Position numbers and translations under genes: made by a program. Positions 10,910-40,615 of a DNA stretch of 47,454 nt are shown in pieces (position 1 is the first letter of the stretch; each line of letters begins with the position of its first letter). The DNA is from Candidatus Woesearchaeota archaeon (GTDB lineage Archaea; Nanobdellota; Nanobdellia; Pacearchaeales; GW2011-AR1), in NCBI GenBank assembly GCA_964437455.1, contig CAYTGG010000004.1, positions 1-47,454 on the forward strand, read 5' to 3'. The notes under the pieces were generated by a model. The model searched no databases, was not told the DNA's origin, and saw nothing but the letters and a program-made list of their open reading frames with translations.

Positions 10910-11752
10910 CTAAGAATTATCTTTTTTTAGATGAATTTTACCTTCTTGCCAATCTTTAAGAATTAAACAAGCTGTTCTTTTTTCATCTACAATATTTCCT
11001 TTTTTAAGAAAATTCTTTATTTTTCCTAATTTTTCTATTAAAATTTCTGAATTTCCTTCTGAATCTATTCCATAAAAATTTTCTAAAATATTTCTGTTAA
11101 GTTTTATAATTTCTGCTACTGCCAATTCAGGATCTTTAATCTGACTGTAAGATTTTCCTCCAATTCTAGCAGATTTTGCCATTAATTTACCTTTAACTGT
11201 TGAATAATCTTTCTTTGGAATAACTCCTGGAGTGTCAATCAAAACTATTTCTCTGTTTAATTTTAATTTTTGTATACTTTTAGTAAAGCCTGCTTGAGAA
11301 GAGATAGCTGCTGAACTTTTTCCTATTAATAAATTAATTAAAGAACTTTTTCCAGTATTAGGATAACCAATAACTCCTACAGTTATTTTCTCCTTTTTTA
11401 TTTTTTTTGAAATTTCTTTTATCTTATTTCTTAATAATCTAGTGCCTTTTCTTAATTTACAGGAGATAACTATACTCGGCTTTAAATTTTTTATATTTTC
11501 CTTTTCTACATTTGTTAAATCAGATTTGTTTAAGACATAAATTATTCTCTTGTTTTGTTTTTTTATTATTTCTTCTATTTCAAAATTTCTGGTCTCATAG
11601 ATAAAACGAGAATCTAAAACTTCGAGAATTATATCAGATTCCTGTATAATTTTTTTTGTAATATCAGGATATTTCTCTTTTTGTTTTTTCATGTTCTCTG
11701 AATCTCTTGCTCTTTTAGTATGTCTTGATGAAAAAGAATATCTCGGCTTCAT
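10910..11752 (-). CDS. Circularly permuted ribosome biogenesis GTPase (RbgA/YlqF-like)
   Basis: NKSD (G4) precedes GYPNTGKSS (G1) and DTPG (G3). Confidence 0.92.
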   Translation of the reverse strand: MKPRYSFSSRHTKRARDSENMKKQKEKYPDITKKIIQESDIILEVLDSRFIYETRNFEIEEIIKKQNKRIIYVLNKSDLTNVEKENIKNLKPSIVISCKLRKGTRLLRNKIKEISKKIKKEKITVGVIGYPNTGKSSLINLLIGKSSAAISSQAGFTKSIQKLKLNREIVLIDTPGVIPKKDYSTVKGKLMAKSARIGGKSYSQIKDPELAVAEIIKLNRNILENFYGIDSEGNSEILIEKLGKIKNFLKKGNIVDEKRTACLILKDWQEGKIHLKKDNS

Positions 11753-11840
11753 AAGATAATTAGTAAAATGAGGTTTATGAATTTAACTTATAGATAAGAG
11801 TCTTAGAAAGTTTTTTATATAGAAATAATATATCTTACTG

Positions 11841-12995
11841 ATGAAAAATAAAATTCTTGAATTACATAAAAGAGGAAAAATTTCTATAAAAAATAAAGTT
11901 TCTGTTAGAAATAAAAATGATTTGTCACTTATTTATACTCCAGGAGTTGCTGAAGTCTGCAAAGAAATAGAAAAAGATAAGGAAAAAGTCTATGATTATA
12001 CTTCTAAAGGAAATATGGTTGCTATAGTTACTGATGGAACTGCTGTCTTAGGATTAGGAGATATAGGGCCTGAGGCTGCTATTCCAGTAATGGAAGGAAA
12101 AGCTAATTTATTCAAGAAATTTGCAAATATTGATGCTATTCCAATATGTTTAAATGAAAAAGATACAGATAAAATTGTTGATATAGTTAAGGCTATTGAA
12201 CCTTTTTTTGGAGGAATTAATCTTGAGGACATATCTGCTCCAAGATGCTTTGAGATAGAAGAAAGATTAAAGAAAATTATGAATATTCCTGTTTTTCATG
12301 ACGATCAGCATGGAACAGCAATTGTGGTTTTAGCAGGATTAATTAATTCTTTGAAGTTAGTAAATAAAAACATAGAAGATTCTAAAGTAATTATTAATGG
12401 TGCTGGTGCTGCTGGAACAGCTATAACAAAATTGCTTTTTACTTACGGATTTAAAAATATTATTGTTTGTGATAGCAAAGGAGTAATCTCTAAAGATAGA
12501 GAATTAAACAAATCTAAAAAAGAAATATGCTCTTTTACAAACAAAAACAATGAAAAAGGAAATTTAAAAGATATAATAAAAAATGCAGATGTTTTTGTTG
12601 GAGTCTCTAAAGGAAATGTATTGACAAAAGAAATGATTAAGTCTATGAATAAAGAACCTATTGTTTTTGCTCTTGCAAATCCTGTTCCTGAAATAGAACC
12701 TGAAGAGGCTAAGAAAGCAGGAGCAAGAATTATTGCAACAGGAAGAAGCGATTTTCCAAATCAGGTTAATAATGCTCTTATTTTTCCAGGACTTTTTAGA
12801 GGGATTTTAGATTCTAGAGCTAAAGAGATCAATGAAAAAATGAAACTTGCTGCAGCTATAGCATTAAAGAATATTGTAGGAGATAAACTTAAAGAGAATT
12901 ATATTCTTCCAGATATTTTTGATAAAGAGATAACTAAAAAAATCTCAAAAGCAGTTTATAATAAAGCAATTGAAACAGGAGTTGCTAGAATTTAG
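11841..12995 (+). CDS. NAD(P)-dependent malic enzyme
   Basis: YTPGVA, TDGTAVLGLGDIG, NLEDISAP, FHDDQHGTA, GAGAAG, TGRSDFPNQVNN. Confidence 0.95.
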   Translation: MKNKILELHKRGKISIKNKVSVRNKNDLSLIYTPGVAEVCKEIEKDKEKVYDYTSKGNMVAIVTDGTAVLGLGDIGPEAAIPVMEGKANLFKKFANIDAIPICLNEKDTDKIVDIVKAIEPFFGGINLEDISAPRCFEIEERLKKIMNIPVFHDDQHGTAIVVLAGLINSLKLVNKNIEDSKVIINGAGAAGTAITKLLFTYGFKNIIVCDSKGVISKDRELNKSKKEICSFTNKNNEKGNLKDIIKNADVFVGVSKGNVLTKEMIKSMNKEPIVFALANPVPEIEPEEAKKAGARIIATGRSDFPNQVNNALIFPGLFRGILDSRAKEINEKMKLAAAIALKNIVGDKLKENYILPDIFDKEITKKISKAVYNKAIETGVARI

Positions 12996-13982: not shown

Positions 13983-14055
13983 CGCCCCCACCGAGATTCG
14001 AACTCGGGTCACAGCCTTGAAAGGGCTGCATTCTTGGCCTCTGAACTATGGGGGC
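13983..14055 (-). tRNA. tRNA-Glu(TTC)
   Basis: GCCCCCA acceptor stem, CAGCC-CT-TTC-AA-GGCTG anticodon arm, GTTCGAATC T-loop; CCA not encoded. Confidence 0.97.
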
Positions 14056-14373: not shown

Positions 14374-14495
14374 TGAGCCTGCTCGGATTTGAACCGAGGA
14401 CCCCCAGCTTTCTTAGACGAATCTAAGTAGCAATAATCCTAAAAGGATTATCGTCGTATAAGACTGGTGCTCTAACCAGGCTGAGCTACAGGCTC
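14374..14495 (-). tRNA. tRNA-Ile(TAT) with 47-nt intron at 37/38 (intron 14410-14456)
   Basis: GAGCCTG acceptor stem; CCAGT-CT-TAT-A[intron]A-GCTGG; BHB formed by the CTTA/TAAG helix, TAC and AAA bulges, and the GACGA/TCGTC helix. Confidence 0.93.
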
Positions 14496-20618: not shown

Positions 20619-23600
20619 ATGGCATACAAGAGATATATAAAAAGGGGCAATAAACTCTATGGCCCATATATTTATCATAGTCATAAAGAAGGTGGAAAAG
20701 TCATTTCAGAATATATAGGTAAAGGTAGTGTAACAAACAAAAACAAGAAATTATTCGGAATTTTCTCTCTTTTTTTAGGAATTTTAGCAGTTTCTTTATT
20801 TTTATTTTTATTTAATGTTTCTTTTACTGGAGATGTTATTCTGCAAATGAAAGATTCTTATTCTGAAAATGAAAATTTAAGTGGATATTTCTCATTTGTT
20901 CTAGAAAAAGAAGAATTTTTACCAGCTTCAACTAAGATTTTTATTAATAATTCAGGAGAAATTTATGAATATCCTTTATTAGATATTCTAGAAGAGCCTA
21001 CAGAAGGAGAATTTTATATGAGAGATACAAATATCTCTGGAAGAGGTTTAGGTTATGGTATGGAATCTAAATTAGTAAGTTTTGTTTTGAGAATATATAA
21101 TGAAACAGCAGTAAATGAAACTGATACTAATAAAACTGATACTAATAAAGCTGATATTGAAATTAATGAAACAGCAGTAAATAAAACTGATACTAATCAA
21201 ACTGATATTGAAATCAATGAAACAGCAATAAATGAAACTGAAGTCAATAAGACTGAAGATAATGAATCTGATATTGAAATCAATGAAACAGCAGTAAATC
21301 AAACTGATACTAATAAAACTGAAGATAATGAAACTGATATTGGAATTAATGAAACAGCAATAAATGAGACTGAAGTCAATAAGACTGAAGATAATGATAA
21401 TGAATTTGGTGATAATGAAATTAAAGAAACTGATAATAATAAAACTGAAAATAATGAAACTGAAGTTGGTGATGATGAAATTAAAAAAACTGATAATAAT
21501 GAAACTGAAATAGAATCTATAGAGGATATTCAAGAAGATCAGAAATCAGATAAAAATACTATTGAAGATGGAGAATCAGAAAAGAATGATTCTAAAATAA
21601 CTGGACAAGCTATAGGAAGATTACCAAATATCTTTACAAACTTCTATTTTGCTTTGACAGGAAATTCTATTTCTGGAATTAATATTGAAGGAGAGGTTTT
21701 AGGAGGTGAAAGATTTGTTTATAATTTATCTGAAGGACAAAACGCAGAAATTGTTTCTTCTTCTAATGATATAAATTTGATAGTAGAAGATAATCAGATA
21801 ATTGTCACAACAAATTCTACTTCAAGTAAAAGAGAGATAATTCTTAGCCTTGAAAAACTAAAAATTCCTGCTAGAAATGGAAGACTAGAAATTAGTTTAG
21901 TTTATGATGGAACAGAATTATCCTCTTTTGAAAAAGAGATTTCAGTAAAAGAAGAATTAGAAAACGAGACTGAACTTAATTTAAGTTTTGATATTGAGAA
22001 GAGAACAAAAAAACAATTTAAAGCTGTAATAAATCGGCCAGTAAAATGGATTGAGATTATTGATACTTCTAATGAAAGTATTAAAATAGAAATTCCAAAG
22101 CAGGCGAGAAATATAACTGTTAAAAAAGGAGAAGAAGTAGAAAAATCTCTAGAAGAATTTGAAGAATATAAAGAAGTAGTAAGAAGAACTGACAAAAGAG
22201 AATTATTAAAAAAATCTGAAATAGGAATTACAGGCCAGGTTTCTTTGGATATTGAAAAAGAAAGAGGATTCTTTTCAAAAATTTTAAATTTTTTCCTTAA
22301 AAAAACAATTACTGGAAATGTTATTTCAGAAGAGCAGATTAAAGAGAATATAACAGAAACAGAGAAGAACAAAATTATTGAGATAGAACCTAAAAAAATA
22401 GGAGCAGAAAATGAGAGTATTGCTGTAGAATATTATACAGATGCGCCATTCTCAAATGAAACAATTTCTTTTGGAAACAAAAAGAGAATAATAATTTCCT
22501 CTTCTGATGAATTGAACTATACAGATATTTTAGCTTATACTCTTTTGGATAAGAAAGTTCCCAAAGATAAAGTTGAAAGCATAAAACTATATTGGTATGC
22601 TTCTCTAGAAGATGCTGTTAAATATGGATATATGAATGAAGATTTAATAAATAATATAAGTGAAAATTATAATTTTACTTCTAATGATTCTTCTTTTAAT
22701 TCAACTGATACTTCTTTTAATTCAACTGATTCTTCTTTTGATTTAATGGAAGTAAAAGACTTATTAAATTTTGAGAAAGTGCCAATTCCCTCTGGATTTA
22801 GAATTGAGACTGATTTTGAAGCTTATGATTTAGATGGAGATGGTTATCTGGATTATGTTGAATGGATAGTTCCTCATTTGAGTAACCAGATATATGAAAT
22901 TGTGATAGAAATTAATAAAGCAGAACATTTAGATGAAAACAGAGATTTTATTTCTGATATTACAGAAAGAGTGATAAAGAAAGATAATAATTGGAGCGAG
23001 AAAATAGGTAATTCAGAATATGTAAGAATTTATTTTGAGAAAAATCTAACTTCTAGAAATGATATAACTTTTTATGCAAGAGATTTAGGAGATGATAGTG
23101 CAAATGTTGAGATTTATACTAAAGACGGAAATGAAAGAATTTCAGTTATTAAAAATATAAAAGAGGAAAAATATTATAAGACTTATCTTCTAAACTTGTC
23201 TGAAAACACTTCTATTTTTGATTTGAGAATTATCTCGAATTTCGGAGTCGAATTTGATCATATAATTGATCCTTATATAAATGTGATTATTAATGAAACA
23301 AATGATTATTTGTATATGCAAAATAGAACAGAATCGACTTCTCACGGAGCAAGATTAGATGCACCTGTTTTATTTATGAATTTCAATGAGGAAAATGAAA
23401 GTGATTATGTAAAAGATAATTCGATTTATAATAACTATGGAACAATAAATGGAAATCCAATTTATGATTCGTCATGCTCTTCTCCAATTGGCGATGGAGG
23501 AGGATGTTATGAGTTTGACGGATATGGAGATTATATTGAGATACCTAATAATCTCGGATATTCCAATAAAGTTTCTGCTTTTGCTTGGTTTAAACAAAAA

Positions 23601-25379
23601 GGAACTCCAGCAGGAGATTTTCATATTATTTTTGGAGGACAAGAACTAGAGATGAGTATATCTAATACAGGTTATTTAAGAACAGGAGTTTATACAGACA
23701 GTAGATATTATTCAGACTATGGTTCTGGCTTAACTGATGGAAATTGGCATTTTGTAGGATTTACTTTTGATGGAACAAATAAATCTACTTATATTGATGG
23801 AGAATATGTTGGAAGCAGTGATGTTTCTGGAACATTAACTTCTTCCTTTTCTAATAGGAGAATTGGTAGATTTGGAAGCTCTGATACTTATTATGCAAAC
23901 GGCTCAATCGATAATGTTCAAATATGGGACAGAGCATTAGAGGCATGGGAAATTAAAGAACTTTATGATGGAACTTATAATGCATCAGAAACTATTGGAA
24001 AATATGCAAGAACAGGAAACTTTAGCAGTTATGCTTATTATAATGACACAGCGATTTATTGGAATATAACCGCAAGTATAGCTGATTCTGATGGAGAAGG
24101 ATTGAATCTAAGTCATCCTAATTTAGTTTCTTATTGGGCTCTTGATGGAGATTATGAAGATTCTAAAGGAAACAATGATGGAAGTTGCTCTGTCGGAACT
24201 TGTCCTCATAATTCTACTGGTTTAAGCTCTTCTGCAATGTTATTTGATGGAGAGGATGACTATCTTTCTATCTCAGTGAGTGATTCAACAACTATTTCTT
24301 ATTGGAAGAAAAACAGCACAGATTCTTCTTGGTATCATATAATTAATTCTTCAAATGGATTTTATATTAATGGAATTAATACTACTTATCAGACAATTTA
24401 TATTAACAAAACAGTTATTGGAAGAAGTGATTCTGGATATTACTTCAATGGTTCTCTTGATGAAATTGCAATATATAATAAATCACTCACGACATCTGAG
24501 ATTGATGAATTGTATAAAATAGGATTAAGTCAGCACGCAGATACTAATGTTAGTATTTTTGTAAGAACAGCAAATAGTTACAATTTAAGCAATTCTAAAT
24601 TAGTAAGCTTCTGGAGTTTTAATGAGCAAAATGCAGATGATGAAATGGACAGAAACGATGGAACAGTTTATGGAGCTACTTGGATGCAAGAGTCAGGAGT
24701 TGTAGGAGGAGGATACAGCTTTAGTGATAATGATTATATTAATGTAGATGAAACAGAGTCATTGAATCCTTCTGAAATAAGTATTGAATTTTGGTTTAAT
24801 CCTAAAGAAGATTATAATTCAGAAACAGAGCTTGTTACTTTGTTGAGTCATTCTTATTATGAAGTTTATATTGAAGATGGAAGAATGGTTTTTGAGTATG
24901 AAGGAAGTAAAATAAACTCTTCTACATCTACTTGGAACAAAAATCAGTGGTATCATGTTTTAGTAACTTATGATGGAGTCTCACAAACAGTTTATATAAA
25001 CAGTGTTAATGAAAGTAGTGCTGTTGCAACTTTAGTAGCACCATTTAAAATAAAAGATTCAGCAGGAAATAATGTTGCTTCATTTTTTGATTCTGGAAAT
25101 TTAATTTTAAAAGGAAAATGTTTTGCAAAAGCTGATTGCACTGATCCAGGAGACACATCTTTTATAATTAAAAACTCTGGAGAGGTAGTTGCTTATATAA
25201 ATTCATCAGGAGATTTATGTATTGAAGATTCAAATTGTGATGATTATGATGAAAATTGTGATAATCCTGGAGATAATTCCTTTATAGTTCAAAATTCAAC
25301 TTTGAATAATGTTATTTATATAAATTCGACGGGAAATCTATGCTTAATTAGAACTTTAAAAGAGAATGGAAATCCATAA
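20619..25379 (+). CDS. Giant N-terminally anchored surface protein with LamG-like domains
   Basis: TM helix at ~aa 46-66, acidic NxT-rich repeats, DLDGDGYLD motif, three LamG-type segments (WHFVGFTFDG...GSIDNVQIW; GSLDEIAIY; WYHVLVTYDG), C-terminal F-x-[IV]-[KQ]-[DN]-S repeats. Confidence 0.85.
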   Translation: MAYKRYIKRGNKLYGPYIYHSHKEGGKVISEYIGKGSVTNKNKKLFGIFSLFLGILAVSLFLFLFNVSFTGDVILQMKDSYSENENLSGYFSFVLEKEEFLPASTKIFINNSGEIYEYPLLDILEEPTEGEFYMRDTNISGRGLGYGMESKLVSFVLRIYNETAVNETDTNKTDTNKADIEINETAVNKTDTNQTDIEINETAINETEVNKTEDNESDIEINETAVNQTDTNKTEDNETDIGINETAINETEVNKTEDNDNEFGDNEIKETDNNKTENNETEVGDDEIKKTDNNETEIESIEDIQEDQKSDKNTIEDGESEKNDSKITGQAIGRLPNIFTNFYFALTGNSISGINIEGEVLGGERFVYNLSEGQNAEIVSSSNDINLIVEDNQIIVTTNSTSSKREIILSLEKLKIPARNGRLEISLVYDGTELSSFEKEISVKEELENETELNLSFDIEKRTKKQFKAVINRPVKWIEIIDTSNESIKIEIPKQARNITVKKGEEVEKSLEEFEEYKEVVRRTDKRELLKKSEIGITGQVSLDIEKERGFFSKILNFFLKKTITGNVISEEQIKENITETEKNKIIEIEPKKIGAENESIAVEYYTDAPFSNETISFGNKKRIIISSSDELNYTDILAYTLLDKKVPKDKVESIKLYWYASLEDAVKYGYMNEDLINNISENYNFTSNDSSFNSTDTSFNSTDSSFDLMEVKDLLNFEKVPIPSGFRIETDFEAYDLDGDGYLDYVEWIVPHLSNQIYEIVIEINKAEHLDENRDFISDITERVIKKDNNWSEKIGNSEYVRIYFEKNLTSRNDITFYARDLGDDSANVEIYTKDGNERISVIKNIKEEKYYKTYLLNLSENTSIFDLRIISNFGVEFDHIIDPYINVIINETNDYLYMQNRTESTSHGARLDAPVLFMNFNEENESDYVKDNSIYNNYGTINGNPIYDSSCSSPIGDGGGCYEFDGYGDYIEIPNNLGYSNKVSAFAWFKQKGTPAGDFHIIFGGQELEMSISNTGYLRTGVYTDSRYYSDYGSGLTDGNWHFVGFTFDGTNKSTYIDGEYVGSSDVSGTLTSSFSNRRIGRFGSSDTYYANGSIDNVQIWDRALEAWEIKELYDGTYNASETIGKYARTGNFSSYAYYNDTAIYWNITASIADSDGEGLNLSHPNLVSYWALDGDYEDSKGNNDGSCSVGTCPHNSTGLSSSAMLFDGEDDYLSISVSDSTTISYWKKNSTDSSWYHIINSSNGFYINGINTTYQTIYINKTVIGRSDSGYYFNGSLDEIAIYNKSLTTSEIDELYKIGLSQHADTNVSIFVRTANSYNLSNSKLVSFWSFNEQNADDEMDRNDGTVYGATWMQESGVVGGGYSFSDNDYINVDETESLNPSEISIEFWFNPKEDYNSETELVTLLSHSYYEVYIEDGRMVFEYEGSKINSSTSTWNKNQWYHVLVTYDGVSQTVYINSVNESSAVATLVAPFKIKDSAGNNVASFFDSGNLILKGKCFAKADCTDPGDTSFIIKNSGEVVAYINSSGDLCIEDSNCDDYDENCDNPGDNSFIVQNSTLNNVIYINSTGNLCLIRTLKENGNP
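21099..21510 (+). repeat. Degenerate coding tandem repeats rich in N-glycosylation sequons
   Basis: Recurrent gatattgaaatcaatgaaacagca(g/a)taaat units encoding DIEINETAVN / NKTEDNE. Confidence 0.85.
22683..22742 (+). repeat. 21-bp coding tandem repeat (D[ST]SFNST)
   Basis: gattcttcttttaattcaact gatacttcttttaattcaact gattcttctttt. Confidence 0.8.
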
Positions 25380-25477
25380 AAAAAGAAATGATGAAGATAA
25401 AGAATTTAAAGAAGGGTAGTGTAACAAAATTTAAATATATTAAATTATTAATAAATGAAAGATGAAAAAGAGGAAAT

Positions 25478-25669
25478 ATGAAAAAACCAATTAAAATTTA
25501 TTTAGATTGTGAAACTGAGAAAAAATTAATTAAAAAAGCAGAAGAAACAGGATTTAGTGGTAGAGGTGCTTTAGCAAAGTTCTTTGAAAAAATTGCATCT
25601 GAAGATATCTGTTTTTTAGATAAAAATTTAAGGAAAATGTTAAAAACTTTATTTCCAAGTAATGATTAA
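25478..25669 (+). CDS. Small putative ribbon-helix-helix DNA-binding protein
   Basis: N-terminal alternating strand KPIKIYLD followed by two amphipathic helices separated by a Gly turn. Confidence 0.55.
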   Translation: MKKPIKIYLDCETEKKLIKKAEETGFSGRGALAKFFEKIASEDICFLDKNLRKMLKTLFPSND

Positions 25670-25722
25670 AATTAACAAAAATATTTAAAAACCCTTTTAT
25701 CTTGATTAGAATAATAAATAAA

Positions 25723-26010
25723 ATGAAACAAAAAAATAACCTATTGATTTTGATTTTGATAGCAGTGGTTGTAGTTTTGTTAGGAATAGTTCTTTATCTC
25801 TTGGTTATTAAACCAAGTTTTACTGGCTATGCTATTAATGCTCAAAATGAAGGAGCAGAGTATATCATAGGAACTATTTTCCAGATGGCATCACAATGTC
25901 AACAAGTTCCAATTACTTTTGACAACCAGACAATCAATCTAGTTGCAATTGAATGTCTTCAACAAGCACAACAGCAAGCACCACAGACATCAGATGAATT
26001 GTTAGAATAA
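25723..26010 (+). CDS. Small membrane-anchored protein
   Basis: N-terminal TM helix, SFTGYA, Cys pair, Gln-rich tail; ATG 25723 preferred over TTG 25702. Confidence 0.75.
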   Translation: MKQKNNLLILILIAVVVVLLGIVLYLLVIKPSFTGYAINAQNEGAEYIIGTIFQMASQCQQVPITFDNQTINLVAIECLQQAQQQAPQTSDELLE

Positions 26011-26098
26011 TAATAATTTTTTTATTTTTATTTTTTAGATTTTTATAATTAATTTTATAAAAAAACCAAAGATTTAAATTTTAATTTTACTCTTTTTA

Positions 26099-27499
26099 AT
26101 GATGAATAAAAGAGAGGATATTATTATTCTAGGAATATTTCTATTTTTTATATTTCTTGTAGGAATAAATGCATTATCTATCGGAGGAGAATCTGGAAGT
26201 TTTTATGATGGACAGATAGATGAGGTTAGAATATATAATGGAAGTCTTTCTTCTGAAGAAGTAAGAAGCAATTATGAATTAGATTATATTAATTGGGACT
26301 CTTGGAGTAAATTAGGATATTTAGAAGATTTAGTTCCAGTAAGATCTCCTTTAGCGAAATTTCTGCAATTTAAATTCTTGTTAGAGTCAAATGATACAGA
26401 AGTAAGTCCTAGTGTGTTAAACTACACTACTAAATCAGCTGGTTCTAATTTAGGACCGAGCATTCTTTTAGTTAGAGTAAATTCATCTTATGGAACCAAT
26501 TATACAGACGAGAATTTGTATTGTTATGTAAATATAACAGATTCTGATGATTCAAATGTTTATGCTAATTTTACTTGGTATAATGATACTGGAGCAGTAT
26601 TCTCAGGAGAATACGGTCCTTTTAGTATAGATACTTTAACTTTAATTTCAATATTGGAATCCGGAAATACTTCTAAATATGAAAACTGGACATGCTCAGT
26701 AAAAGCTTATGATGGAAAAGATTATGAAAATAATGAAAGTAATGCTTCTATAACTATTCTTAATAAACCTCCAGAAGTAAATCTGAGTTATCCTTTAGAT
26801 GACTTCGAAACTACAAATAGAACACCTACATTTAATTGGACAGGAAGCGATGCAGATGGAGATCCCATAACTTATGAACTAAATATATCTTGCTTTCATT
26901 CTGCTGGAGGAACCTGTTCTATTGATGATAGATACTTTACAAATTTAATATTAGAAAATAAAACTCTGGAAGAATATCTAAAATATTTGTGGGATAAAAA
27001 TTATTATTATAATTGGACTGTGAGAGCTAATGATAGTGAAGATTATGGAGAATGGGCTCCTCCTAGAAGATTGAAGATTCAAGCACTTATTGCAACTTCA
27101 CTTCCTGTGGATTTTGTAGATTTTGGAGAAATGGAGCCAGAAGAGATTAATGACACTTCTGATGATAATCCTTCTCCTTTAGAACTTCAAAATGATGGAA
27201 ACTGTTTTGTAAATACAACCATAAATGCAACAGATTTATGGTCAAGCGAGAATAATCCTTCTGAATATTATCTTTACAAAATAGATAATAAAACAGGAGA
27301 AGAAGGAGCTTTTGTATGGGATTTAAGTGAGGTATCCTGGATTAATATGCCTTCTATAAACTCTCTTGCAATAGCAAAATTAGACTGGAATGATTCTAAA
27401 GATCTTGCTGAAACTGATTTAAAAGTAAAAGTTCCAAATCATGAACTTCCTGGAAATAAAACATCAACAATCTGGTTTATATCAAGTTTAGGAGAATAA
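26099..27499 (+). CDS. Secreted multi-domain protein: LamG C-terminal half, Ig-like/Fn3-like domains, C-terminal pilin-like domain
   Basis: Signal peptide ending GINA; GQIDEVRIYNGSLS; WTCSVKAYDG; WTVRAND; VDFG...LELQNDGNC...VPNHELPGNKTSTIWF. Confidence 0.8.
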   Translation: MMNKREDIIILGIFLFFIFLVGINALSIGGESGSFYDGQIDEVRIYNGSLSSEEVRSNYELDYINWDSWSKLGYLEDLVPVRSPLAKFLQFKFLLESNDTEVSPSVLNYTTKSAGSNLGPSILLVRVNSSYGTNYTDENLYCYVNITDSDDSNVYANFTWYNDTGAVFSGEYGPFSIDTLTLISILESGNTSKYENWTCSVKAYDGKDYENNESNASITILNKPPEVNLSYPLDDFETTNRTPTFNWTGSDADGDPITYELNISCFHSAGGTCSIDDRYFTNLILENKTLEEYLKYLWDKNYYYNWTVRANDSEDYGEWAPPRRLKIQALIATSLPVDFVDFGEMEPEEINDTSDDNPSPLELQNDGNCFVNTTINATDLWSSENNPSEYYLYKIDNKTGEEGAFVWDLSEVSWINMPSINSLAIAKLDWNDSKDLAETDLKVKVPNHELPGNKTSTIWFISSLGE

Positions 27500-35370: not shown

Positions 35371-35658
35371 ATGCCTAAAAGAAGCAAAATAAAAACACCG
35401 GATTGGATTTTGAATGAGAAAGCTCCAAAAAAAGAAAGTAAAAAAGAAAAGGTCTTTAGAATTAAATTATGTCCAAAATGTAAAAGTGATAATGTAAAAA
35501 TTATATTAAGTGGAATGAATTCTGAAGAGCAGTCAAATACAGGAAAAGAATGGAAATGTGATAATTGTGGATGGAAGGGAAAGGAAATTATTGAAAAAGA
35601 GCTTAGCGAAGAGGAATTTTTGAAATATTTAGATGAAAAAGGAGAGAAAGTTAATTAA
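35371..35658 (+). CDS. Zinc-ribbon protein between gyrB and gyrA
   Basis: CPKC...WKCDNCGW; 1-nt gaps to both neighbours. Confidence 0.8.
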
Positions 35659-35659
35659 A

Positions 35660-38600
35660 ATGACACCTAAAAAAACAGATAAAGAAATGATAGAAGATGA
35701 AAAAGAAAATATCTCAGATTCAGAAGTCTCTGAAGTAATGAGAAAATCTTATTTAGATTATGCTATGTCTGTTATTGTTAGTAGAGCGATTCCTGCTGTT
35801 GAAGACGGTTTAAAACCTGTTCAGAGAAGAATTCTTTATTCTATGCATCAGATGGGATTAAAGTCAGCAAGTCAAACAAAAAAATCTGCTAGAATTGTTG
35901 GAGATGTAATTGGTAAATATCACCCTCATGGAGATACTGCTGTTTATGAAACTATGGTTAGAATGGCTCAGGATTTTTCTATGAGATATCCTTTAGTTTT
36001 TGGTCAAGGAAATTTTGGATGTTTTACTGCAGATACAAAAGTAAAATTAACCGATGGAAGAGATTTATCTTTCTTAGATTTGGTTGAAGAAAATAAACAA
36101 GGAAAGAGAAATTTTACATTTACAGTTGATGATGGTATTATAAAAATTGCAGAAATAAAAAATCCAAGAAAAATAAAAGGAAATACAGAAATTATGAAAG
36201 TAATTTTAGATAATAGTGAAGAAATAAAGTGCACCTTAGATCACAAATTTATGTTAAAAGATGGAACATATAAAGAAGCAAAAGATTTGAAATCAGGTGA
36301 TTCATTAATGCCTCTTTATTTTAGACTTTCAACAATAGAGGATGATTCTAAAGCAATAGGTTATGATATGATATTTCAACCTAAAAATAGTTCTTGGAAT
36401 TTTTCTCATATCTTAGCTGATGAATGGAATATAGAGAATAATATCTATTCAAAATCTGCAGGAAGAATAAGACATCATATTAATTTTAACAAATTGAATA
36501 ATAATCCAGATAATATAAGAAGAATGAATTGGAAAGAGCACTGGCAAACTCATTATAACTTTACTTCTGAAAAGCACAAAAATGATTTAGATTATGTCCA
36601 AAAATTGGCTGAAGGAAGAAAGAAATTTTGGAGTGATGATAAAAATAGAAAAGCTTATTCAGAAAGAATGAGAGAGAGAAATTTGAATAATTGGAAAAAT
36701 AAAAAATACAGACAGAATATGATTGTAACTCTAAGTGAAGTTAATAAAAAATATTTAAAAGAACATCCTGAAAGAATAGAAGAAATACGAAGAACCGCAT
36801 CTATATCTCTAAAAAAGATGTGGAAAATATCAGAATATAGAGAATTATTTCACAATATAATCTCTGAAAATAATAAAAAAAGAGAAACTAATTTAACTGG
36901 AAAGAGAAAATTTGTAAGGATATGCGAGTATCTTAAAGAAAATAATATTCCTCTGAATAAATCTAATTATGAAGAAACTAGAAAGAATATATTTGGAACA
37001 AAAAGTTTCACTTCTTGGGATTTGGGAATTAAAAAGTATTTTGAAAATAATAAAAATCTCGTTTTATGTGAGATAAACCAAAACCATAAAGTTGTTGGAA
37101 TTAAATTATTAAATGAATTTGCAGATGTTTACGATTTAACAGTTGATAAAACCCATAATTTTGCTTTAGCTTCAGGTATTTTTGTTCACAATTCAACAGA
37201 TGGAGATCCTCCTGCAGCTTATAGATATTGTATAACTGGAGATTCCTTAGTTGTAACAAATAAAGGTATTCAAAGAATAGATAAAATTTCGAATAAAGAA
37301 GATATTGATATAAACATTTTATCTAAAGATAAGAAAATTCATTCTTCTTCTAAATTGTTTGATTCAGGAATTCACTCTACAAAAAAGATAACAACAAATC
37401 GTGGTTTTTCTTTAACTGGAAGTTATAATCATCCTGTTTTAACTCTAACGAAGAATTTGACTGAAGCTCCTACTTTTATGTGGAAAACTTTTGAGCAGAT
37501 TAAGAATGGAGATTATATTGTCTTAGACAGATTGTCCGATGATTTTTGGCCTGAAAAAAATTTAGATTTAAGAGAATATTGGTCTGAAACCGATAATAAG
37601 AGAATAAAGCAGAGAATTTTACCTACTAATTTGAATGAAGACCTTGCATTTATATTAGCTTCTTTAATCACTGAAGGTACGCTTAATCATAAAAAAATAG
37701 AGTTTTGCAATACAGATGAAAAATGGATTAATGCTTTTGAGAACAAATGGAATAAAATTTTTCCAGATAGTAAATTACATAGATTCAAAAGAAAACCATC
37801 TTCTTATGGCAAAAAAGATTATTGGAGATTAGAATGTCATTGTTTACATACAATTAAGTTTTTAGAAAATATGGGTTTGTCTCTTGTGAAATCAAAGTCT
37901 AGAGAAATTCCTTTATTAATCTTACAATCTCCAAAGGAAGTTTTAAGAGAATTTGTAAAAGTATCTTTTGAAGGTGAGGGGGGTGTTGCTTTCACAGAAA
38001 AAATGATGGAAATTAGATTTTGTTCATCGAATGAGAGCTTAATTGATCAATTCCAAATTATTTTGTTAAGGTTTGGTATAGATTCTTTTAAGAGATATGA
38101 CAAATACAAAAAATTACATCTTTTGCAGATTAGAGGAAAGAGAAATTTCTTAAGATTTTATAAAGAAGTAGGATTTTTATCTGAAAGAAAAAATTTTGCT
38201 TTAGAATATATTCTTTCCAAATACAAGAAAGATTATTCTTCTACAGATTATGTTCCTTTTTTATCTAACTATATTAGGAGATTAGCTAAATATTCTGGAA
38301 ATGAATTTATTATGAAACATAATTTTGATAGATATGGAAATATGTCTAAAAATTATTTAAGAATTTCACAAATAGTAAAAGATAAAACAGGAGTTAATGT
38401 TAGATCTCTTTTTGAATATTTTTTAGGTTACCAATATTTATTTGACAGAGTTATTTCTATAGAAGAGACTGGGAAAAAGAGAGTTTATTCTATAAAAGTC
38501 GATAGTGATTGCCATTCTTTTATTTCTAATGGATTTATAAGTCACAATACTGAAGCAAAATTAATGCCAATATCCTCTGAGTTAATTCAAGATCTTGATA

Positions 38601-40615
38601 AAGAAACAGTTAAATTTAATTCTAATTTTGATAATACTCTAAAAGAGCCTGAACTTCTTCCAGGAAAACTTCCCGCTTTAATGTTAAATGGAGCAACAGG
38701 AATAGCAGTGGGTATGGCTACAAATATTCCTCCTCATAATTTAACAGAAATATGTGATGCTATAATTGAATATATTAAAAAACCTGAAATAAGCATAGAA
38801 GAACTTTGTGATATTGTTAGAGGACCTGATTTTCCAACAGGAGGAATGATTCAGGGAGATATGAAGGAACTTTATCAAAAAGGAAAAGGAAAGATTATAA
38901 TCAGAGGAAAAACAACAACAGAATCCTCGAAAAATAGAGAACTTATAATAATTACAGAAATTCCATATATGTTAAACAAATCAACTTTAGTTGCTCAGAT
39001 TGCTAATTTAGTTCAAAATAAAAAAATAAAGAATGTTTATGATTTGAGAGATGAAAGTTCAAAAGGAAAAATAAGAATTGTTCTAGAAGCTAAAAAGGGA
39101 ACAGATCCTAAATTTATAATTAATTCTTTGTATAAGTACACTCGTTTACAAGATTCTTTTAATGCTAATTTTCTTGCTTTAGTTAAAGGACAACCAAAAC
39201 TACTAAATCTTAAGAATATTCTTGAAGAGTATGTTAATTACAGAAAAGAAATAATTACTAATAGAGCAAAATACGAATTAAGGAAAGCAAAAGAGAGAAA
39301 AGAAATTGTAGAAGGGCTTTTAATTGCACTAAAAAATATAGATGAAATTATAAGATTAATTAAAGCTTCAAAAAGTGTTGCAGAAGCTTCAGATTGTTTA
39401 ATGAAAAAATTTAATTTGACTTCTAAACAATCTCAAGCTGTTTTAGACACCAAACTTCAACAATTGACTTCTTTAGAAAGAGATAAACTAAAAAAAGAGA
39501 GAGAAGAATTAGAAAAGAAAATTGAGGAATTAGAAAGTACTTTAGGAGATATTAAAGAGATTTTAAAGATTATAGTAAAAGAGATTAAAGAAATAAGAAA
39601 TAAATATGGTGATGATAGAAGAACTAATGTTTTGAAGAATATTAAAGAGATTAAAGAAAAAGATTTAATTCAGAAAAAAGAGGTTATAGTAACTATTACT
39701 GATAGAGGATACTGCAAAAGAATGGATGTAGAAACTTATAGAGAACAAAAAAGAGGAGGAAGAGGAAGTTTAGGAAGCAGTTTAGCGACAGGAGATTTTG
39801 TGAGAAAAATAATATCCTGCTCAACTTATGATTATCTTTTATTTTTCACAACTCGTGGAAGAGTTTTATGGTTAAAAGCTTATGAACTTCCTTCAGCTGA
39901 AAGATATAGTAAAGGAAAAGCATTGATTAATCTTCTTGGATTAAAAGATGAGTCTATTACAAATATAATTCCTCTGAAGAATTTTGATGGATATCTATTT
40001 ATGGCTACAAAAAAAGGAATTATTAAAAAAATTTCTCTGAATTATTTCTCAAAACCTAGAACTTCAGGAATTAAAGCTATTAAACTTCCTTCTGATGATT
40101 CTGATTTCCTTATTGGAGTAAAAGTAATAGGAAAAGATGATGAAGTCTTTTTAGCAACTAAAAAAGGAAAAGCTATAAGATTTGATAGTGGAAGCATAAG
40201 AAATATGGGAAGAACTAGTTATGGAGTTACTGGAATAAAATTAGAAAAAGATGATGAAGTAGTTAGTTTAGAAGTTTTAAATACAGATGCTATAATGACT
40301 ATTACGAGAAATGGATATGGAAAAAGGACTAATGTGAAAGATTATAGAAAAACAGCGAGAGCAGGAAAGGGAGTAATTAATCTAAAAATTATAGAAAAGA
40401 ATGGAGATGTTGTTACTACTATTGCTGTTAATGAGAAAGAAAATATAATAATAACAACTGCAAAAGGAATAGCGATGAGAACTTCTCTTGAGAATATAAG
40501 AATTATGGGAAGAGCAGCTCATGGAGTGAGAGTAATAAAACTACAGAAAGGAGATTATGTAACAGATTTAATAAGAGTTCCTGAGAAAGAAGAAAGAAAA
40601 GAAATAATTAATTAA
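35660..40615 (+). CDS. gyrA: DNA gyrase subunit A precursor with two inteins (820 aa after splicing)
   Basis: [30 protein letters not shown]|TEA, GyrA box QKRGGRG, C-terminal pinwheel repeats. Confidence 0.97.
36020..37192 (+). mobile_element. Intein 1 (391 aa) with HNH-type endonuclease
   Basis: GNFG|CFTADT ... CTLDHKF ... [16 protein letters not shown]...KEH ... VYDLTV..THNF..FVHN|S. Confidence 0.93.
37229..38548 (+). mobile_element. Intein 2 (440 aa) with LAGLIDADG endonuclease
   Basis: YRY|CITGDS ... SYNHPVL ... LASLITEG ... VSFEGEG ... [18 protein letters not shown]|T. Confidence 0.93.

Follow-up and report, generated by a model that had tools for sequence, protein, structure and literature searches.

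The window, that is the whole stretch of 47,454 nucleotides of archaeal DNA that was analysed, carries two genes for large secreted proteins that are separated by small ORFs (Table 1). The genes are termed here A (ORF 20619-25379) and B (ORF 26099-27499), with the genome of the window called G000 and that of a sister species G001. The product of A has a cytoplasmic motif and a TM helix at its N-terminus, behind which lie Asn/Thr-rich repeats, then three LamG domains and lastly a C-terminal module. Pfam finds three Laminin_G_3 stretches in it, the first (aa 967-1113) complete at profile positions 1-151 of 151, the second covering 51-150 and the third (aa 1369-1473) only 2-110, with 54.8 bits. 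The initial annotation held that this third domain lacks its closing strands and then switches to an unrelated repeat, and the profile bears this out, past its break the domain reads into an unrelated Cys-rich three-repeat module. In a direct reading of the sequence, the first and second LamG domains show the closing motif (..IG.., F/Y-x-G-x-[IL]D[EN].., ..L), which the third lacks after ...TVYINSVNESSAVATLVAP.

Table 1. Features of genes A and B and of the ORFs between them, in positions of the window
Feature	Position	Strand	Remarks
ORF A, giant surface protein	20619..25379	+	1586 aa
Outer beta-sandwich, first strands (GKYARTGNFSS...WNITASIAD, A aa 1127-1156)	23997..24086	+	aligns to G449 giant proteins
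Outer domain, middle strand (TNVSIFVRTANSYNL, A aa 1309-1323)	24543..24587	+	
Third LamG, N-terminal part (A aa 1325-1473)	24591..25037	+	break after Pfam 110/151, custom HMM 149/212
C-terminal tail module (A aa 1475-1586)	25041..25379	+	three Cys-rich ~38-aa repeats, end ..ENGNP, then stop codon
Ribbon-helix-helix-like (RHH) ORF, 63 aa	25478..25669	+	weak TraY match
Small membrane protein (TM) ORF, 95 aa	25723..26010	+	frame open from 25702
ORF B	26099..27499	+	466 aa
B signal peptide (aa 1-25)	26099..26173	+	hydrophobic core aa 8-22; helix aa 4-23 in model
Third LamG, C-terminal part (B aa 26-57), two closing strands	26174..26269	+	Pfam 117-150/151; custom HMM 160-199/212
Outer beta-sandwich, closing half (B aa 58-115: ..INWDSWS..KFLQFKFLLESNDTEVSPSVLNY..)	26270..26443	+	aligns to stretch after intact G449 LamG domains
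B body, three tandem FN3/Ig-like beta-sandwich domains	26444..27499	+	AF2 pLDDT 85-98 for aa 221-466

The missing part is found in B, as had been claimed, right after the signal peptide. The closing LamG motif lies directly behind the hydrophobic leader (...GINA|LSIGGESGSFYDGQIDEVRIYNGSL), and B aa 24-55 match Laminin_G_3 positions 117-150 of 151 (E 1.6e-5) with 25.6 bits, just below the cut-off of 27.6. The leader is predicted to be cleaved at ..INA|LSIGG, with the motif xNA|[LF][SI]IGG kept in all five aligned B-type N-termini. The body of B has no membrane anchor, its Foldseek matches are FN3 tandems and SiiE BIg domains, and the same module forms the covalent C-terminus of giant proteins in relatives.

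Neither protein holds a whole-length Laminin_G_3 (PF13385) above the gathering score for the split domain, jointly they cover positions 2-150. The same complementarity is given by a custom LamG HMM of 212 positions, trained on 25 contiguous LamG domains taken from relatives, which was run over the whole 482-kb genome and returned six LamG hits. Four are complete, namely the first domain of A (10-202), the second (3-92 and 113-205), a protein on contig C15 (13-200) and one on C10 (3-197). The only two partial hits are the third domain of A (1-149) and B (160-199), which complement each other, a match that is not explained by chance.

The break also runs through a second domain, as the second and third LamG domains of A are nested in an outer beta-sandwich. 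The giant proteins of the genome G449 have this nested unit intact, with a strand like ..TNVTLQTRTANNYN.. upstream of a full LamG (profile 1-150/151) and ..HINW..G....KFMQYK..NDTNVVPYL.. downstream of it, and the counterparts of these pieces in the window are A aa 1309-1323 and B aa 58-108. The outer domain suggested by the initial annotation is real.

Comparison with relatives shows that A and B are the products of fission of one giant surface-adhesin gene. A fused orthologue, which it had been proposed to search for, exists in the genome G030 as one ORF of 3497 aa, its N-terminus matches A (the homologous parts of A are its first ~66 aa and aa 445-885), its last ~440 aa match B (41% identity to B aa 24-466), and an intact LamG (profile 3-150/151) lies between the A-like and B-like parts. 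The genes 3' of this ORF are homologues of ORF159 and ORF400, which follow in the window too. Of the two origins offered by the initial annotation, that an ancestral giant gene was split or that it was shuffled, both are shown, the first by the fused G030 gene and the second by the tail of A.

This tail is the module that closes many unrelated large proteins, and it has become the new C-terminus of A. It is present in 41 of 301 genomes sampled from the order and is the very C-terminus at eight of ten loci read. As in eight of ten other proteins read it follows unrelated domains or a complete LamG, it is regarded as an independent domain. No Pfam or NCBIfam family was matched. A bulb-type lectin (B_lectin, PF01453) was considered and rejected, the match spans 23 residues only, with E of 0.049 in G000 and 0.0072 in G001 and a score of 14.6-17.3 bits where the cut-off is 32.4. 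When PDB was searched with a profile, only weak repeat-like matches came up, among them a designed WD40-like protein (E 5e-5).

The split is found again in at least two more distant organisms, in which the DNA between or after the two genes differs. Both parts occur as intact ORFs in G000, in G001, in the organism of locus L172 and in G454, and P0031 is a fifth B-type fragment, the number of lineages that retain the split being at least four to five. The arrangement of LamG N-terminal part, tail and stop recurs in L172 and in P0153/L251 of G454 (both Pfam 1-116/151), with the tail directly after the LamG part in four of four A-type proteins. A signal peptide followed by the LamG C-terminal part recurs in P0086 (117-149/151), the gene for which lies 3.2 kb downstream in L172, in G454:C77 (115-151/151, 29.0 bits) and in P0031. 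The A-type gene is followed by the RHH and TM ORFs in the window and by a 1052-aa ORF in L172, and in G454 and G001 the two genes lie on separate contigs. The outer-domain halves are of two types, a jelly-roll in the window and an Ig/Big_13-like fold in L172 and G454, and they match within each A/B pair. The distribution is patchy, with the split unit in one of 60 relatives of G000 and none of 25 relatives of G454.

Purifying selection acts on both remnants, as measured between G000 and G001 by pN/pS with a Fisher test (dS about 0.4-1.1). The LamG N-terminal part in A has a pN/pS of 0.26 over 143 codons (p 4e-9), and the tail behind it, at 0.11, is under strong purifying selection. For B aa 26-115 the ratio is 0.49 (90 codons, p 2.8e-4) and for its outer half, aa 58-115, it is 0.48 (p 0.001), for the LamG piece by itself, of 32 codons, significance is not reached (p 0.06).

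A complex of A(1300-1586) and B(24-130), the modelling of which had been suggested, gave an ipSAE of 0.78/0.84/0.83 against 0.00 for the best of three controls, although a high score may be a memory of the known LamG fold and, as the halves of split domains tend to pass, it is to be read as likeness and not as binding. At least 92% of the contacts are common to the runs, with a partner pLDDT of 68-70. The model puts the strands of B at the canonical sites of the LamG sandwich, with IDEVRIY of B between LVSFW, the first LamG strand of A, and ISIEFWF, as in a whole LamG. The outer half of B lies on the VSIFVRTA strand of A, and B residues 58-75 and 83-98 touch TNVSIFVRTANSYNL.

Taken as a whole explanation, fission of one giant gene followed by extracellular fragment complementation of its halves is slightly favoured here. 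The break falls inside the last LamG, itself nested in a second beta-sandwich, of a giant adhesin of a Woesearchaeota-like DPANN archaeon. The 5' gene retains the LamG strands to about profile position 110 and ends with the Cys-rich three-repeat module and a stop, and the 3' gene has a start of its own and encodes a Sec-type signal peptide. With cleavage at ..INA|LSIGG, mature B would have the LamG strands that A lacks at its free N-terminus and the absent outer half behind them. After secretion these N-terminal ~90 residues may insert into the open LamG and outer sandwich of A, a fragment complementation analogous to donor-strand complementation, by which the anchor-less B would be tethered non-covalently to the distal end of the membrane-anchored A, beside its tail module. 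The halves, carried on separate secreted proteins in several related archaea of very small size, would probably rejoin outside the cell and so link the two proteins. Docking by fragment complementation, as first proposed, stands in this way as an in silico and evolutionary case, made from the complex score, the disorder of the B fragment, selection and recurrence. Its extension to a coupling of the adhesin to a fibre tip is more than the data can carry, nothing that points to a fibre was found and B consists of three FN3/Ig-like domains. If the leader were left uncleaved, B would be a membrane protein and its remnant a stalk.

A wider reading, which is rather doubtful, is that the recurring unit of LamG N-terminal part, tail and stop, then signal peptide and LamG C-terminal part, is a conserved plug-and-socket, by which giant adhesin genes are cut in two and their products re-joined outside the cell by beta-sandwich complementation. 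It is possibly a mobile 'gene splitter', which may have spread between LamG repeats by homologous recombination, given the two types of host domain (jelly-roll and Ig/Big_13), the patchy distribution and the differing genes after the A-type gene. Were it true, adhesin tips would be exchangeable as separate genes.

Fission could also have occurred without any docking, with the half-domains left as recombination scars, A using its new tail and B secreted or held by an uncleaved helix, its ~90-residue remnant being only a flexible stalk or linker that is slowly lost. This is unlikely, though several findings fit it. In the model of B alone aa 23-132 are disordered (pLDDT 29-60, no strands), constraint on the remnant is weaker than elsewhere in B (pN/pS 0.49 vs 0.31, identity 60% vs 72%), and a known fold can yield a high complex score. 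The A-type and B-type genes are not adjacent in G001 and G454, therefore no operon enforces their co-expression, and in G006 and G035, which belong to other genera, B-like proteins with their own leader and without the LamG piece stand alone, so the module can work untethered or anchored in another way. Against a scar, a pN/pS significantly below 1 would be unexpected, all five B-type N-termini have the LamG core motif xNA|[LF][SI]IGG....G.IDE[VL]R[IV][YW] and a matching outer half despite an overall identity as low as 27-34%, and the truncated LamG ranks with the most conserved parts of A, being 83% identical between G000 and G001 compared with 60-66% for the N-terminal part.

Less probable again is a completion in cis, in which the first beta-hairpin of the tail replaces the missing LamG strands and the B fragment has another role or none. 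The truncated LamG in A(1300-1586) is modelled confidently by AF2 without B (pLDDT 81-94) and so may need no completion. Residues 21-177 of this model are a LamG-like (ConA-like) jelly-roll (best match 5hp6, Z 13.4, rmsd 2.1, 143 aligned), and strands that follow directly on the truncated sandwich, at residues 178-180 and 186-191, could close the gap in cis. The tail stands immediately behind the LamG part in all four A-type proteins, and no stretch is better conserved than the junction and the first tail repeat, where G000 and G001 share 44 identical residues. However, these strands have a pLDDT of only 44-59, the LamG-like structural matches end at residue 173-177, it is B that fills the gap in the complex model with the tail making no contact, and elsewhere the tail mostly follows other domains, as described above.

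That the 1.1 kb insert is misassembled, or is excised to restore the giant gene, is highly improbable, even with a 127-b piece (25017-25143) that in runs X3 and X4 is covered 5-9 times as deeply as its neighbours, therefore a branch point in the assembly graph, and with G000 contigs C1 and C8 ending at the sites next to which the RHH and TM ORFs lie in G001. This piece is 124/127 identical to G001 and shares its difference at 25082, so that its depth is attributed to a more abundant sister species. In runs X1 and X2 a Logan contig of 1471 b covers 25114-26584, in X3 this span is covered by one of 1470 b, and others of 428 b (24619-25046) and 127 b (25017-25143) overlap, such that 24619-26584 and both junctions are bridged in four runs from two studies, and one of these runs may be that of the source sample. 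Their contigs contain no joint in which the insert is skipped. The independently assembled G001 has both junctions identical in kind (Pfam 2-110 and 118-151), and four independent assemblies share the LamG-to-tail junction, with the tail in frame and under strong purifying selection. As each junction is spanned by contigs and the split recurs in the sister species, misassembly, which the initial annotation had asked to be checked, does not account for it, and its remark that no repeats were seen at the junctions agrees with the present search, in which neither meaningful flanking repeats nor a recombinase gene were found.

The favoured reading, fission with docking, can be set beside several known systems. 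Split genes of DPANN archaea are known for cytoplasmic enzymes, the products of which assemble in the cytoplasm. A and B are alike in that the gene is single in relatives and two in a reduced-genome DPANN archaeon, with both halves kept, but they form a secreted adhesin cut inside a beta-sandwich, any reassembly must be extracellular, and the 5' half gained a C-terminal domain and the 3' half a signal peptide. Split protein-coding genes are described from Nanoarchaeota and DPANN, such as Nanoarchaeum equitans, in passages of PMC3655853, and the main text of a survey of archaeal gene fusion and fission (PMC11237513) does not mention LamG, laminin, adhesin or surface.

Chaperone-usher pili are known for donor-strand complementation. 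The proposed joint is similar, an incomplete beta-sandwich completed by the N-terminal extension of another secreted protein in a non-covalent, strand-integrated manner, A having a LamG without closing strands and mature B, cleaved as predicted, starting with them. It is unlike these pili in that the fold is LamG/jelly-roll and not an Ig-like pilin, ~90 residues (two LamG strands and half of a second domain) would be donated and not one strand, and the product would be a heterodimer joint with a traceable fission origin and not a polymer. Scanned with Pfam, A, B and the four ORFs that lie between them or follow them have no chaperone/usher or pilin families, and A/B is not counted as a member of these systems, though it may work alike. 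In archaea such complementation is reported for threads, cannulae and bundling pili (PMC9715654, 10.1101/2024.12.30.630787, PMC12337348).

In engineered fragment complementation, such as split GFP and split lectins, two fragments of a beta-rich domain fold only together. A/B differs from these in being natural, extracellular and conserved across lineages. A itself resembles the giant, secreted LamG or ConA-like lectin proteins of DPANN archaea, rich in N-glycosylation sites and thought to mediate host-cell attachment, which are described in passages of PMC7443923 and PMC5498576, and a LamG domain divided between two genes is not mentioned in those passages.

If the halves re-associate, this would be a natural lectin-type beta-sandwich made from two genes and assembled outside the cell, and as the ancestral one-gene state is visible in relatives, it would show how evolution can lead from an adhesin with covalently linked domains to a complex joined by strand complementation, the principle on which donor-strand-complemented pili are built. 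Docking would also bear on the ways in which ultra-small symbiotic archaea vary the giant surface proteins that are presumed to bind their hosts, a detachable tip with its own gene could be swapped or separately regulated, and protein engineers would have in the pair an orthogonal split-domain tag that is ready for use. Without docking, it is still a clean, dated case of gene fission with domain capture at a fast-evolving adhesin locus.

Of the ORFs between A and B, the 63-aa RHH ORF has 72-80% identical counterparts in 16 of 301 family genomes, there in other contexts, and the 95-aa membrane ORF has a homologue in G001, where it precedes the B homologue.

The LamG domain is divided between two separately encoded proteins, the giant surface protein A and the predicted secreted protein B, as the initial annotation had proposed. 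In A, Pfam recognises Laminin_G_3 three times, and the last of these stretches (aa 1369-1473) ends at position 110 of the 151 in the profile, whilst aa 24-55 of B correspond to positions 117-150. A custom LamG HMM of 212 positions, trained on 25 LamG domains that are contiguous in relatives, gave six matches over the entire genome, four of them complete, with the other two being the complementary pieces in A (its third LamG, 1-149) and B (160-199). An equivalent pair of partial Pfam matches, 2-110 and 118-151, is present in the sister species G001. Some 13 residues are retained in A after the YINS strand and 4-6 in B before LSIGG, thus the break is clean with essentially no overlap or loss. 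The outer domain, a second beta-sandwich suspected to enclose the split LamG, is real, as the giant proteins of G449, a relative with unsplit giant genes, have its strands either side of an intact LamG: a strand resembling TNVSIFVRTANSYNL of A, then a complete LamG (1-150 of 151), then a stretch resembling INW...KFLQFKFLLESNDTEVSP of B.

The genome is 482 kb in 16 contigs, with a GC content of ~27% and a completeness of 88%, and the window is its complete contig C4 (47.5 kb). Genes for Kae1, L7Ae and S28e upstream, together with relatives named as Candidatus Woesearchaeota MAGs, place it among the DPANN archaea. A and B belong to a run of surface-protein genes that continues beyond B with ORF159, ORF400 and more secreted proteins. 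Within A, aa ~150-310 (21072-21533) form a long Asn/Thr/Glu-rich run of near-repeats (INETAVNKTDTN...) that is rich in N-x-T sequons, with a spurious 153-aa ORF on the opposite strand.

Genes around the divided LamG domain
Feature	Position	Strand	Length	Location
A	20619-25379	+	1586 aa	
RHH-like ORF	25478-25669	+	63 aa	between A and membrane ORF
Membrane ORF	25723-26010	+	~95 aa	directly before B
B	26099-27499	+	466 aa	

That an ancestral giant gene had been split was one of two explanations first put forward, and it is confirmed by the relative G030 of the same family. Here a single ORF of 3497 aa has an N-terminus matching A aa 1-66, a further match to A aa 445-885 at 35% and a C-terminus matching B aa 24-466 at 39-41%, with an intact LamG (3-150 of 151) where the break between A and B falls. 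Downstream of this ORF lie homologues of ORF159 and ORF400, the genes that lie downstream of B in the window. Many relatives have the body of B, three FN3/Ig-like domains, as the C-terminal part of a large protein, with matches in 30 of 61 genomes and frames reaching 3820 aa. In G006 and G035 it is a protein by itself, ~430 aa long, with its own leader and without the LamG piece. The event was a gene fission, in which a C-terminal module was captured on one side of the break and a signal peptide on the other. A and the fused G030 protein also have in common an N-terminal cytoplasmic motif, M..KR...KRG.K.YGPYIY.S....GKV...Y.GK, ahead of a TM helix (20619-20730).

The captured module, the tail, is a stretch of 112 aa past ...VYINSVNESSAVATLVAP in A, consisting of three Cys-rich repeats and with the end ..ENGNP. 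In a sample of 301 genomes of the order it is present in 41, and it is the very C-terminus, behind unrelated domains, at eight of ten loci read; at the other two an RHS/YD-like region comes after it. At L036 and L038 (G127:C45, G307:C16) the RHS/YD-repeat-like region that follows the tail has a variable C-terminal end and resembles polymorphic toxin architectures. No Pfam or NCBIfam family covers the tail, and neither the ESM Atlas nor a profile search of the PDB gave anything firm, with only weak similarities to B_lectin and WD40-like repeats. A tail nested within a whole LamG, the unsplit form, was seen in none of the ten tail loci read, nor among proteins of 2777-5000 aa, which is weak evidence. 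Small genes encoding a signal peptide and a tail, possible partners in the recombination, exist (L086, L088), and none was found beside the RHH gene at the loci checked. Arrival of the tail, RHH and membrane ORFs as one mobile cassette was considered and is unsupported, with the RHH gene in other contexts, away from tail-bearing genes, at all ten loci checked.

The same split is found in other lineages. B aa 1-130, compared by HMMER with 1.84 billion representatives, gave 5574 matches at E <= 0.001, and nearly all of the best 150 of these are internal LamG ends of giant proteins. Among those 150, seven have the LamG closing motif within their first 90 residues: four with a hydrophobic leader directly ahead of it (B, its G001 homologue, P0031, a 115-aa fragment, and P0086 with 3319 aa) and three that begin mid-domain without a leader and resemble cut gene calls. 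P0086, from the metagenome contig L172 (GC 0.36), has ..VNA|LIIGG, with LamG 117-149 of 151 followed by the second half of an Ig-like domain (Big_13 58-100 of 102). The gene upstream of it (at least 2260 aa), beyond a 1052-aa ORF, ends in a LamG N-part (Pfam 1-116 of 151), a tail and a stop, with LamG and tail joined at the same position as in A and the tail 58% identical to that of A. In another distant organism, G454, the A-type protein P0153 (2449 aa) has LamG 1-116 of 151 and a tail 64% identical to that of A, and its B-type partner, on a separate contig, has 472 aa, with ..NLNA|LIIGG, LamG 115-151 of 151, an Ig-type closing half and a B-like body at 32% identity, with an ORF400 homologue downstream.

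The LamG N-parts of A-type proteins have 41-53% mutual identity across lineages, and at most 42% to any other LamG in the 301 family genomes. The outer-domain halves are of two types, which match within each A/B pair. The distribution of the split is patchy; it was found only in G001 among 60 relatives of the genome and in none of 25 relatives of G454, four of which gave a match, each time within an ORF of 815-4177 aa. Among the 80 genome and 79 metagenome loci retrieved with the N-terminus of P0086, a leader directly before a LamG C-part occurs in L172 only, and a word-based search at near lengths, in which B aa 1-130 was the query, returned only B itself and the G001 protein. A tree of the B body, from which L089 (merged pieces too long) and L018 (internal stop) were left out, has 16 rows and support for 3 of 13 inner branches, with G454 on a long branch. 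The split could stem from one old event inherited vertically, or from a cassette that recombination carries from one LamG repeat to another. In G454 an island of toxin-antitoxin-like genes comes directly after the P0153 gene (L251 9000-12000); by eye these are small PIN-like, RHH-like and RelE-like ORFs, and past the island (11665-11979) lies a second, partial tail copy, 55% identical to the tail of A. The arrangement resembles an insertion of DNA by recombination within tail-coding sequence.

Both pieces were compared between the genome and G001, for which dS is ~0.4-1.1.

Selection on the LamG pieces and their surroundings, genome under study against G001
Region	Codons	pN/pS	Fisher p	Identity
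LamG3 N-part of A	143	0.26	4e-9	83% (vs 60-66%, A N-terminal part)
Tail of A		0.11		
B aa 26-115	90	0.49	2.8e-4	60%
B aa 26-57 (LamG piece alone)	32	0.51	0.06	
Body of B		0.31		72%

The alternative first proposed to the split of a giant gene, docking of the two proteins by fragment complementation, has the support of a structure model in which the canonical fold is rebuilt and the halves fit, though fit is not binding. Modelled alone, A(1300-1586) has a LamG N-part with a pLDDT of 81-94 (model residues 21-177 align to LamG-like jelly-rolls, best Z 13.4), whilst the 30 residues after it are at 44-59 and the tail at 37-71. In B alone aa 23-132 are without strands at a pLDDT of 29-60, with aa 221-466 at 85-98. 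The complex of A(1300-1586) and B(24-130), each chain with its own separate alignment, gave ipSAE values of 0.78, 0.84 and 0.83 against 0.00 for the best of three controls; the calibration mark, which 58 of 80 solved complexes reached as against 2 of 110 mismatched pairs, is a rough guide here as own alignments were used. The runs have at least 92% of contacts in common, with a partner pLDDT of 68-70. IDEVRIY of B is placed between the LVSFW and ISIEFWF strands of A, and the outer half of B on the VSIFVRTA strand of A.

Extracellular re-association of A and B is the best-supported mechanism, and a somewhat probable one. It is favoured by the complex model, by the predicted leader cleavage motif that is kept, by the retention of both half-domains across four to five lineages, by the outer halves that match within each pair and by the fact that B has no anchor of its own. 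As the LamG fold is well known, the complex model may have passed through memory of it, and the main rival, that the half-domains are an undocked scar or stalk, has a lesser though appreciable chance of being right. Completion of the LamG of A in cis by its own tail is improbable; the tail does lie directly behind the N-part, and in the complex model it is free of contacts. Split genes are known in Nanoarchaeota and donor-strand complementation is known in archaeal filaments. A LamG domain divided between two secreted proteins was not found in the literature searched, nor in the main text of a survey of archaeal fission families (PMC11237513). Two reports describe the giant, LamG-rich surface proteins found in DPANN archaea as likely host-attachment factors (PMC7443923, PMC5498576).

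Misassembly at the junctions, which the initial annotation had raised, is not borne out, as overlapping Logan contigs from four runs in two studies (one study possibly the source of the window) bridge 24619-26584 without any joint bypassing the insert between A and B. One contig of 1471 b (runs X1 and X2; 1470 b in X3) runs from the end of A through the two small ORFs into the start of B, its LamG piece included. No RNA run was found to contain the stretch. A 127-b piece, 25017-25143, has a far higher depth in X3 and X4, which is put down to a more abundant sister species, given that 124 of its 127 bases are identical to G001 and that it has the G001 base at 25082. Loose ends and a joint skipping 175 near 25540-25750 were dismissed, their sides being 20-24 AT-rich letters from other contigs. 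The absence of junction repeats reported earlier also holds, with a search for repeats and target-site duplications giving AT-rich chance matches only. A hairpin at the LamG-to-tail junction (25041-25114) is not significant (RNA fold z-score -1.16), and a scan for sigma-70-type promoters and terminators, a type ill-suited to archaea, gave promoter counts at shuffle level. The DNA of the B signal-peptide core (26113-26142) is 70% identical over 30 nt to that of the TM helix in the small upstream ORF (25764-25793), probably by chance amongst AT-rich hydrophobic codons.

Contig C8 of G001 has the LamG-to-tail junction and the RHH ORF, and the membrane ORF and B are on its C24 with other neighbours, thus a rearrangement between these two small ORFs distinguishes the species, with synteny broken exactly between them (25670-25722). 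After the RHH ORF G001 has Sec61beta and NAC, corresponding to the end of contig C1 in the genome under study (C1:89422), and before the membrane ORF it has genes like those of that genome's C8 (end C8:1). One inversion would explain the difference if the ends of C1 and C8 adjoin. Between the two species of the genus, the DNA spanning the LamG-to-tail junction (24999-25130) has an identity of 97-98%, against ~80-85% in flanking coding DNA, and dS at the junction is as low as ~0.2; this suggests that either the DNA itself is constrained or the species have recently exchanged it.

The RHH protein is unusually conserved, with 72-80% identity in 16 of the 301 family genomes. At all five outgroup loci read (among L075-L084) its gene stands in divergent orientation to a gene for a large secreted protein whose N-terminal motif is conserved, and the RHH gene is often near tRNA genes homologous to 13983-14055 and 14374-14495 of the window; the protein may be a regulator of surface-protein genes. 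The tRNA at 14374-14495 is called by Rfam and absent from the ARAGORN output, and its length of 122 nt suggests an intron. Further along the window the GyrA ORF (35633-40615, 1660 aa) apparently has two intein-like insertions, marked by ...VHNS and ...SHNT in the translation read by eye.
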